Below, piece by piece: positions 45,788 through 47,449 of a stretch of DNA of 64,000 bases. The translations under genes and the position numbers were made by a program. This DNA comes from Kofleriaceae bacterium (lineage in GTDB: Bacteria > Myxococcota_A > Polyangia > Haliangiales > Haliangiaceae), in NCBI GenBank assembly GCA_036269175.1, contig DATASS010000840.1, forward strand, positions 1,837 through 65,836, in the 5' to 3' direction. Each line of letters begins with the position of its first letter. Within the stretch, counting starts at the first letter, position 1. The notes under the pieces are model-generated. The model saw nothing but the letters and a program-made list of their open reading frames with translations, made no database searches and had not been told where the DNA came from.

Positions 45788-47449
45788 GTGAGCTTCGATC
45801 GATCGCGCCGCGCCGGACAGAGCCCGGAGCACGCAGCCAGCGTCGATGCGCCCGGTCCGGGCAAGCGAACGCTGACCGCGCAGCTCGACGCCGCGATCCA
45901 GCAGCGCGCCACGGCGGCGCCCGAGGCCGACGTCCACGCCGCCGCGGCGCACGGCATCGGCGGCAGCGCCACCACCCTGCCCCACCTCGGCCCGATCCAG
46001 CAGGCGTTCGGCCACCACGACGTCGGCCACGTCCAGGCCCACGTCGGCGGCGCCGCGGCCGAGGGCGCGGCCGCGATGGGCGCGAGCGCGTTCGCGGCTG
46101 GCGATCACGTCGCGTTCGCCGGATCGCCCGATCTCCACACCGCGGCGCACGAGGCCGCCCACGTGGTCCAGCAGCGCGCCGGGGTCCAGCTCCAGGGCGG
46201 GGTCGGCGAGGTCGGCGACGCCTACGAGCGGCACGCCGACGCGGTCGCCGACCTCGTCGTGCAGGGCAAGTCGGCCGAGGCGGTGCTCGATCAGCACGCG
46301 CCGACCGGCACCTCCGGCGCGCCCGGCGGCGCCGTCCAGCGCCATGCGTTCCTCAACGGCAAGCAGATCCCGCGGACCGATCCCGCGGTGACCGGCGCCA
46401 TGGTCGACCTCGTCACCGACGAGGTGGTCCGCGACTACCAGACGATGGAGGAGTTCCGGAACCACGCCGCCGGCAAGACCGACTACCTCGGCACCCTGCC
46501 CGGCGACAACAACGTCTGGCTCCGGTTCAGCCCGACCGGCCTCAACGTGCTCGGCGAGATGCACGAGACCGCGTCGGCGCTGGAGTTCGTGCTCCCGGCG
46601 GTCGGCAGCAAGAGCTTCATCAGCGAGGCGATCTCCAACCAGGCCCCGGCGGCGGGCTCGCAGCTCGAGGCGTCCTACGACGCCGAGCACGCCGATCGGT
46701 TCCAGCAGTTCGGGATCGTGAAGGAGAACGACAAGACCCGGTTCGGCGCCGAGCCGCTGATCCCCAAGATCGGCTACGGCATGACCGCGGTCCTGCCCTA
46801 CCTCAACCTCGGCACCGGGACCGGCGACAAGGACAAGAACGTCCACCAGCTCACCAAGGGCAACTACGGCGGCGAGATCTACCAGACGCTGCTGAAGGAG
46901 GCCTGGGCGTGGGGCAAGGACACCGCGGTCTCGGTCGCGGCGATGCACGTCGCATTTGCGCCGGTCCCGCCCAAGCTGGATGCGCTCGCCCAGGTGGTCA
47001 GCTCGCTACAGAGCGTGCTCGATCCCTTCCTCGCGGCGCTGCCGACGTCCGGCTTCCTCGGCGACTCGCTCGCGCTGCCCCAGAACGCACCGCTGCTGCT
47101 GCCGGTGACCAAGTTCGTGCGAGCGGCGATCGAGGCCGCGGTCGAGCAGGCGGCGACCGATCCGGCCAGCCGGCTGACCGCGCGCCAGAAGAAGCAGCTC
47201 ACCGGCGCGAAGACCGACGACGCGCGGCTCGAGGGGTTCACGGAGTGGCGCAACATCGAGATCGCCGCCTCGGTGAAGGACGCCGCCGCGCGCGGCGTGC
47301 GCTACGCGGGCATGGGCTGGGCCCACATGCACCACCTCGAGAAGTCGCCGCCGGCCAGCACCCACATCTTCGACATGAACGGCAAGGACATCGAGCGGTT
47401 CGAGCACGGCACCGAGGCGCTGGCCAGCATCGCCGTCAAGCAGCGATAG
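45788..47449 (+). CDS. DUF4157 (zincin-like HExxH) domain protein with an uncharacterised ~370-aa C-terminal domain
   Basis: GGGAGG lies 5 nt upstream of the GTG. N-terminal [13 protein letters not shown]4157 core ([24 protein letters not shown]...[11 protein letters not shown]...[15 protein letters not shown]), with HEAAH at 46148-46162. Confidence 0.8.

Follow-up and report, generated by a model that had tools for sequence, protein, structure and literature searches.

A 553-residue DUF4157 protein from a Kofleriaceae bacterium with an uncatalogued, putatively enzymatic C-terminal domain: a probable injection-system cargo encoded away from its machine

The DNA analysed here, hereafter called the window, is a stretch of 64,000 nucleotides that makes up nearly the whole of the 65.8-kb contig DATASS010000840.1 of a Kofleriaceae bacterium. 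On its forward strand lies a gene for a protein of 553 amino acids (aa) in which a disordered leader, a DUF4157 zincin, a short linker and finally the C-terminal domain (CTD) follow one another (Table 1). The protein is probably a cargo effector of the kind fired by the phage-tail-like machines called extracellular contractile injection systems (eCIS), encoded remotely from the machine and carrying an uncharacterised His/Glu hydrolase as its payload. An earlier note, made from the DNA letters alone, had left the choice between a distantly encoded cargo and a DUF4157 protein with a non-toxin role; the former is favoured by homologues that reside in eCIS clusters, by the swapping of C-termini among related proteins and by an architecture like that of the cargo of AlgoCIS.

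The gene and its features

The open reading frame (ORF) is a real gene. Translation of the window DNA gave a stop-free frame of 553 codons that starts with GTG, has GGAGG 5 nt upstream and shows GC contents at the third and second codon positions (GC3 0.96, GC2 0.48) as they are usual for true genes of the window, whose GC content is ~70-75 %. Its product is identical to a 553-aa gene product on record (P0002). The stop codon TAG occupies 47447-47449 and the convergent gene for an acyl-CoA dehydrogenase (ACAD) ends at 47451, leaving the gap of 1 nt that had been described before. The motifs read earlier in the translation were likewise found in place: GKRTLT at aa 25-30 (45860-45877), HEAAH at aa 121-125 (46148-46162), VLGEMHE at aa 254-260 (46547-46567) and an 11-residue segment with a second motif at aa 506-516 (47303-47335).

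Table 1 Features of the gene, of its surroundings in the window and of the partner gene in relatives (positions are those of the window unless a locus is named)
Feature	Position	Strand	Evidence or remark
Whole gene: leader, DUF4157 zincin, linker and C-terminal enzyme domain	45788..47449	+	ORF; identical protein P0002
N-terminal leader, aa 1-65, with conserved P-G-K-R-T-L-T (45860-45877)	45788..45982	+	Candidate loading sequence
DUF4157 / eCIS_core (PVC-metallopeptidase), aa 66-165, with HEAAH (46148-46162) and the conserved Glu in GDxYE(R/Q)HAD	45983..46282	+	Pfam PF13699
Gly/Ala/Ser linker (aa 166-182), ending in the conserved junction A-V-Q-R that runs into the CTD (aa 181-185)	46283..46342	+	
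CTD, aa 183-553 (371 aa): unannotated alpha/beta core with ~200-aa helical insertion, predicted hydrolase	46334..47446	+	AlphaFold2; family search
First GxxH, G256-E257-M258-H259 (CTD G74, E75, H77), directly after strand 70-75	46553..46564	+	69-member alignment; model
Glu280 (CTD E98), within strand 95-101, 21 residues past the first His	46625..46627	+	Invariant
Arg488 (CTD R306, motif W-R-N), on helix 295-319 preceding the second motif	47249..47251	+	Invariant
Second GxxH, G510-W511-A512-H513 (CTD G328, H331), directly after strand 324-328	47315..47326	+	
Upstream block: inverted repeat TGTGACAC (45637-45644) / GTGTCACA (45701-45708) and block GGGATCTCCGGATATGGAATGTCGTATCAT (45720-45749)	45637..45749	.	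Kept in four orthologues
LytS-type histidine kinase (44345-45439) and LytTR response regulator (43569-44348), divergent from the gene	43569..45439	-	Syntenic in four genomes; possible regulator (adjacency)
Partner gene in relatives	L003 11695-12345; L004 11596-12243; L006 11781-12416; L007 4093-4743; L030 3943-4563		Also in L009-L018

The N-terminal module

The leader is of low complexity, with 68 % disorder-promoting residues as judged from its composition and not by a disorder predictor. The same check of its composition revealed no signal peptide, transmembrane or hydrophobic segment, and the leader therefore holds no Sec signal. Delivery by the Sec, type VI secretion system (T6SS) or Rhs route was ruled out on these grounds and for want of a PAAR, VgrG or Rhs gene in the window.

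The DUF4157 zincin-like core with HEAAH that had been proposed for the next segment was recovered by Pfam: PF13699 (eCIS_core, formerly DUF4157) matched aa 70-132 with E = 3.2e-10 and 40.5 bits, above the curated cut-off of 22. This was the only Pfam match of the whole 553-aa protein, and searches of NCBIfam and of PDB sequences were empty. The HExxH zinc-binding motif is intact and is accompanied by the downstream Glu E147; H121, E122, H125 and E147 were invariant across nine aligned related N-terminal modules.

The linker forms the boundary between this constant module and the variable CTD. Proteins with unrelated C-termini also show the leader and DUF4157 module ending in A-V-Q-R (loci L026, L028, L029 and L009-L020), as it does in the window at 46325-46342 (aa 180-185, G-A-V-Q-R-H). 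Across 72 members, CTD residues Q2 and R3 did not vary, even in actinobacterial forms with no more than a short LQRxAGNRAV leader. AVQR has the look of a motif that demarcates the two parts, as VENN does in CdiA, or of a candidate processing site for the zincin, at which the protein may be cut.

Homologues in injection-system clusters and exchange of C-termini

The presence of DUF4157 strongly points to an eCIS toxin (PMC8213781, PMC11297309). Full-length homologues of the window protein, 41-47 % identical in the CTD, were found inside complete eCIS clusters at L003, L004/L005 and L007. At L003 (47 % identical) and L004/L005 the homologue stands in a run of DUF4157 cargo genes that is flanked at one end by Pvc16_N and AAA+/WHD genes and at the opposite end by tube, Phage_base_V and GPW_gp25 baseplate genes. 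On a short contig from an Opitutaceae genome (L007), it lies directly downstream of the AAA+/WHD ATPase gene, again among DUF4157 cargo genes. An AAA+/WHD gene is found ~6 kb upstream of the homologue at L001, and further DUF4157 genes lie beside that at L008.

The survey of C-terminal swapping that the earlier note had proposed showed that the N-terminal module is common to proteins with unrelated C-termini. Including the PGKRTLT leader, it was 52-84 % identical to the corresponding part of proteins with other C-termini (TGL transglutaminase-like or unannotated), and the N-terminal 27-48 % of the protein shared 48-72 % identity with proteins bearing PF20085, PF00248, PF03770, PF00069 or unannotated C-termini. 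The domains joined to this common module, at ~60-70 % identity of the latter, include TGL, kinase, aldo-keto reductase and unannotated ones. On sequence comparison, one N-terminal module with swapped C-termini is the pattern of polymorphic toxins; the Ntox2/PVC-metallopeptidase polymorphic toxins are built in the same way, with a constant N-terminal module and swapped C-terminal toxin domains (PMC3482391).

Each of the paralogue-type DUF4157 toxin genes with another C-terminus on the shared module (60-72 % identity) is followed by its own small gene, for a protein of 190-209 aa (L026 11502-12131, L028 11380-11952 and L029 11452-12060). This arrangement fits dispersed toxin-immunity cassettes in myxobacterial-type genomes.

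In Cgo1 and Cgo2, cargo shown by experiment to be loaded into AlgoCIS, the leader is needed for loading while the DUF4157 domain is dispensable, and loading leaders are system-specific (preprint 10.64898/2026.05.27.728243). The window protein has the same succession of a disordered leader, a DUF4157 domain and a variable ordered CTD, is close in size to Cgo1 (498 aa) and has homologues that sit among cargo genes downstream of an AAA+ loading ATPase. It differs from the AlgoCIS cargo in the sequence of its leader, in its unrelated CTD and in the location of its gene away from a machine. eCIS-associated toxins (EATs) with an N-terminal DUF4157 domain, such as EAT14 (PMC8213781, PMC11297309), share with it a C-terminus that is enzymatic (by prediction in the window protein), the lack of a canonical signal peptide and a patchy distribution across phyla; they differ in the distance to the operon, which is taken up below, and the CTD of the window protein is devoid of an annotated domain.

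The C-terminal domain

The ~370-aa C-terminal region, called unfamiliar in the earlier note, lies outside all Pfam, NCBIfam and PDB matches and falls into no catalogued family. When 1.84 billion representative proteins were searched exhaustively with a profile, a small CTD family of 244 clusters emerged at E<=1e-3. The AlphaFold2 model, computed from a 72-sequence alignment, has a predicted local distance difference test score (pLDDT) of 95.9 and a predicted template modelling score (pTM) of 0.92; at either end it has beta-alpha-beta units, which are separated by four long helices (~residues 178-319). Foldseek, which had been suggested together with the modelling, found no neighbour for it: in the PDB and BFVD the best E values were 0.27-0.34 with TM scores of at most 0.2, to helical proteins that match weakly, the best 50 of 419 PDB matches being listed. 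A Pfam scan of 69 diverse members with E values up to 10 returned only DUF4157 repeatedly and nothing over the CTD. Sequence and HMMER profile searches of PDB chains with the whole protein, the CTD and the N- and C-terminal halves of its core yielded only a chance match to transthyretin (E=0.34). NCBIfam and PADLOC scans of the CTD gene and of the partner gene described below were empty, and a role in anti-phage defence, be it of the gene alone or of the pair, found no support there.

The domain occurs in several contexts. It may follow DUF4157 or, in Actinomycetota such as Microlunatus ginsengisoli and two Pseudonocardia species, a short leader that bears L-x-A-L-Q-R-x-A-G-N-R-A-V; it also forms stand-alone proteins of ~350 aa and is found within giant proteins of 1369, 3006 and 6283 aa. 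In the giants, the CTD lies at residues 936-1290 of P0227 (1369 aa), 1776-2143 of P0223 (3006 aa) and 2067-2414 of P0138 (6283 aa), the latter with a second stretch; no Pfam domain was detected in the two that were scanned. These giant proteins may be multi-effector toxins. The distribution of the family is patchy, with members in genomes of Actinomycetota, Bacteroidota, Verrucomicrobiota and Thermodesulfobacteriota, while the labels 'delta proteobacterium' and Kofleriaceae of metagenome-assembled genomes (MAGs) point to Myxococcota. Two 'delta proteobacterium' MAGs have a CTD gene that is broken into two reading frames (L011 9644-11075 and L018 9647-11079), either by a frameshift or by an error of long-read assembly.

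Residue conservation was examined in 69 diverse members, with CTD numbering starting at aa 183. D29, G53, W62, E75, H77, E98, R306, G328 and H331 were invariant, and G74, E140, K145 and G326 nearly so. The invariant residues were present at all 20 loci examined, and the 30 conserved positions that were checked are kept in the lineage of the window. Chance does not account for the two GxxH motifs, whose residues G74, E75, H77, G328 and H331 vary little or not at all even where identity falls to 19 %. In the model, the first GxxH follows a strand and is succeeded by a helix and the strand that bears the Glu, while towards the C-terminus the helix with the Arg is followed by a strand, the second GxxH, a helix, a strand and a helix.

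This order fits the TIKI superfamily, which comprises Tiki, TraB/PrgY/GumN, ChaN, erythromycin esterases and RRSP and already includes injected effector domains (PMC6254334). Its pattern is two His and two Glu residues plus an Arg; in RRSP, E3900, H3902, E3930 and H4030 are essential, together with R4001, and lie near parallel core strands (PMC6254334). The TraB/GumN protein YbaP of E. coli carries the motifs G-S-I-H41, E67, R228-N and G-A-L-H252, in the same sequence as the CTD. The distance from the first His to the Glu is +21 in the CTD, +26 in YbaP and +28 in RRSP, and that from the Arg to the second His is +25, +24 and +29, respectively. The CTD and the superfamily thus share two GxxH motifs, each placed after a strand, a Glu on the following strand and an Arg (R-N/D) ~25 residues before the second His. 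They differ in the ~200-aa helical insertion that separates the two halves of the CTD, and HMMER, hhalign and Foldseek detected no homology between them. The resemblance to ChaN, Tiki and erythromycin esterases that the earlier note had tentatively raised accordingly stands for the motifs but not for the profiles or the fold: at motif level, the invariant ExH, E, R and GxxH residues reproduce the 2His/2Glu plus Arg pattern of these hydrolases.

A partner gene in relatives

At 14 of 21 loci, on contigs of Verrucomicrobiota, Bacteroidota, Actinomycetota and Myxococcota type and at orphan loci too, a gene for a protein of ~195-216 aa lies directly 3' of the CTD gene, with a junction that ranges from an overlap of 8 nt to a gap of 112 nt and mostly measures <=17 nt. 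The 35 clusters of this partner family are all labelled hypothetical, and no match was found in Pfam, NCBIfam or PADLOC. The model of the partner (pLDDT 88) is a half-barrel of the LolA/LolB/LprG/VioE type (Foldseek E=1e-6 to 1e-3, probability 1.00). It shares with these proteins the long antiparallel strands and short helices of the half-barrel, but it is only 8-17 % identical to them, which amounts to no sequence similarity, is coupled to a toxin-like gene and in most copies has no signal peptide. At L011, L013, L014 and L018, an upstream extension of the ORF would take in a hydrophobic segment that resembles a lipobox.

The partner opens with a beta strand and lacks a leader of the cargo type, so that it would stay in the producer, as expected of an immunity or holding protein. 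The simplest reading of its model and its linkage is a candidate cognate immunity, holding or accessory protein. The LolA fold is not known as that of an immunity protein.

No homologue of the partner was detected in the window by tblastn (best E=0.67), which disposes of a copy elsewhere in the window, and the position directly downstream of the 553-aa gene is taken by the ACAD gene after 1 nt. The earlier statement that no small downstream immunity ORF is present was thus correct for the window. What had been missed is that the family normally carries a tightly linked gene downstream, which this lineage has lost.

The lineage of the window gene

The three closest homologues with readable context, L021 (86 % identical), L023/L024 (69 %) and L022 (63 %), are placed like the window gene, with the LytS/LytTR pair to one side and the ACAD genes to the other, and all three are without the partner gene as well. 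In a maximum-likelihood tree, the window protein and these orthologues form a clade (support 100/99) whose sister is L006 (98/95), an orphan locus with partner; the pair of CTD gene and partner is also present at L030, on a contig labelled Kofleriaceae. Since L006 and L030 have retained the pair and the four clade members have not, the partner was lost in the ancestor of the window clade. Family members without partner are placed on long branches.

Nonsynonymous (dN) and synonymous (dS) substitution rates were estimated by the method of Nei and Gojobori, dS being similar for the CTD, the DUF4157 half and the flanking genes. Against the two more distant orthologues, dN was 0.22-0.34 for the CTD (dN/dS 0.74-0.95) and 0.10-0.17 for the DUF4157 half (dN/dS 0.38-0.63); for the flanking ACAD, kinase and regulator genes, it was 0.04-0.12 over all pairs (dN/dS 0.20-0.57). 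The CTD dN/dS against the closest orthologue L021 was 0.37. Absolute ratios are inflated, because the extreme GC3 compresses dS. The CTD changes three to five times faster than the flanking genes, with every catalytic residue kept, and its helical insertion and C-terminal segment are 60-62 % identical among orthologues vs 72-77 % for the N-terminal lobe and the first core segment. Such a pattern fits better with a fast-evolving functional effector than with a pseudogene.

About 110 nt upstream of the start are kept in the four orthologues, including the inverted repeat and a 30-nt block that ends in TATCAT (Table 1); this region is a candidate promoter and operator. Other toxin-type genes were observed around the LytS/LytTR site, namely a ParE toxin with its antitoxin (L022 9153-9752) and a second DUF4157 protein of 623 aa (L023 5929-7800).

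Surroundings in the window

Past the LytS/LytTR pair, the window has a gene cluster for rhodanese and sulphur transporters as well as a cysteine-desulfurase-like gene. Downstream of the 553-aa gene, two pairs of ACAD genes, a small histidine kinase gene and a CoA ligase gene were found, and the remaining genes encode ordinary metabolic, transport and signalling proteins. A TonB-dependent-receptor-like gene at 35634-38471 has a GC content of ~0.65, vs 0.73-0.78 nearby, and a weaker GC3; this stretch may be of foreign origin or have been acquired recently.

The reported lack of eCIS, T6SS and PAAR genes nearby held for the whole window. Pfam detected no such family (sheath, tube, baseplate, Pvc16, VgrG or Rhs) in the 45 other called genes scanned, and tblastn with 21 reference eCIS-cluster proteins matched only the 553-aa gene itself.

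Proposed function and alternative explanations

The protein would be a polymorphic-toxin cargo of the DUF4157 (PVC-metallopeptidase) class, encoded away from the eCIS machine by which it would be loaded and fired. By analogy with the AlgoCIS cargo, the ~65-aa disordered leader with PGKRTLT would serve as loading sequence. The zincin would be an accessory or processing module that possibly cuts at the AVQR junction. The 371-aa CTD would be the payload, a hydrolase acting through E257, H259, E280, R488 and H513 and, by its motifs, most like the peptidases and esterases of the TIKI/ChaN/erythromycin-esterase group. In relatives, the translationally coupled, cytoplasmic LolA-fold protein of ~210 aa would act as immunity or holding protein; in the lineage of the window, it would have been lost after the gene had settled between the LytS/LytTR pair and the ACAD operon. 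For the window protein we infer particle loading, catalysis and toxicity, and for the partner its role.

Several observations weigh against this reading. Only three distinct loci have the CTD gene within an eCIS cluster, most loci being orphans; 88 % of known eCIS toxins are encoded within ten genes of the operon (PMC11297309), unlike the window gene. The 64-kb window is devoid of eCIS genes, and the cognate machine is a presumed one, encoded elsewhere in the genome. In addition, the lost partner and the high CTD dN/dS could reflect relaxed constraint. The last point leads to the explanation, in our view improbable, that the gene is a decaying orphan toxin which has lost its partner, its link to injection and its function and now drifts under relaxed selection. 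When the two more distant orthologues are compared, the CTD ratios (0.74-0.95) exceed those of flanking genes at similar dS, partner-less members sit on long branches and the L011 and L018 copies are split over two frames, all of which would agree with decay. Against it stand the frame, which is intact in four syntenic genomes and has the high GC3 noted above in the window copy, and the retention of 30 out of 30 conserved positions; the helical insertion and the C-terminal segment have diverged most, the ratios are inflated by GC3, and fast surface evolution is usual for effectors. LytSR-type systems control autolysis-type functions in other bacteria, and a domesticated, non-injected protein under control of the LytS/LytTR pair, which acts in or on its producer in autolysis, developmental lysis or envelope remodelling, would explain the fixed site in four genomes at 63-86 % protein identity, the conserved upstream block with its inverted repeat, the kept catalytic residues and the lack of a partner, immunity or eCIS gene nearby in the window. 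We nevertheless regard domestication as unlikely, since the cargo-type leader and DUF4157 domain have been kept and form the more conserved half of the protein, other toxin-like proteins begin with the same N-terminal module, the sister lineage L006/L030 has an ordinary cassette of toxin plus partner, and this intergenic space also receives other mobile toxin genes; regulation by LytTR is moreover an argument from adjacency only.

The nature of the payload is a separate question. The tests that bear on a TIKI-type hydrolase tell against that part of the cargo reading: no TIKI chain was among the best 50 of 419 Foldseek PDB matches (best E=0.34), none was found in the PDB by HMMER profiles of the whole CTD and of each core half, and hhalign aligned the CTD family to a YbaP profile, itself shallow (Neff 2.0), with E=0.23-0.3, a score reached by 55 of 200 column-shuffled controls. 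A full-length, low-stringency hhalign path put all four motifs in register with YbaP, at a score no better than chance, and a version restricted to the core did not surpass the shuffles. Given these negative statistics, with Pfam also empty, the CTD is not filed as a TIKI member. That it works like a TIKI-type His/Glu hydrolase is suggested by its conserved residues and is a serious possibility that falls just short of an even chance. Somewhat doubtful, and compatible with the cargo reading, is a CTD that is not TIKI-like at all: a new-fold hydrolase or Ntox2, possibly acting on nucleic acid or lipid, with the LolA-fold partner as a carrier of a hydrophobic ligand or as a co-factor. The lack of a fold or profile match to any TIKI member agrees with this, as do the binding of lipids or acyl chains by LolA-fold proteins and the Microscillaceae members of the CTD family, which have GENH at the motif. 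Ntox2 was described as an alpha+beta domain with a helical part, the motif GEsH as well as conserved E, RE, H and K, fused to the PVC-metallopeptidase in Microscilla marina (Zhang et al. 2012, PMC3482391). Compared by description only, the CTD, with GE[N/D/S/M]H, E98, K145, H331 and members in Microscillaceae, may be this Ntox2 domain, albeit no 'RE' was recognised; unlike Ntox2, for which a single species and no immunity protein were listed in 2012, the CTD family has a conserved downstream gene. What speaks for TIKI instead is the order, spacing and strand context of the five invariant residues, and a TIKI chain could rank below the 50 Foldseek matches considered. A bolder proposal, to which we give little credence, would make the CTD an unrecognised TIKI branch that is delivered by injection systems and held by a cytoplasmic LolA-fold immunity protein, the window lineage, Kofleriaceae-like, keeping an immunity-less copy at one fixed place in the chromosome under LytS/LytTR control. 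This copy would be tolerable because DUF4157 would first have to cut at AVQR to free the active enzyme. If true, LolA-fold/TIKI would be a new toxin-immunity pairing, and DUF4157 a built-in maturation protease, a testable job for a long-unexplained domain.

Significance

DUF4157 proteins form the largest pool of predicted eCIS toxins, and 983 of 1130 have an unannotated payload (PMC11297309). Unannotated C-termini are thus the known rule among them; added here are a defined CTD family, its putative catalytic residues and a LolA-fold partner. The family offers a confident model, a five-residue catalytic hypothesis that is open to point mutants and a companion protein that could be an inhibitor, and it provides annotation with a better label than 'DUF4157 domain-containing protein'. 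If the window protein is a cargo, as is probable, its history illustrates that cargo genes can become fixed far from the machine and lose their companion gene. Such distant cargo genes matter where eCIS cargo is predicted from the gene neighbourhood, and for the self-protection of producers.

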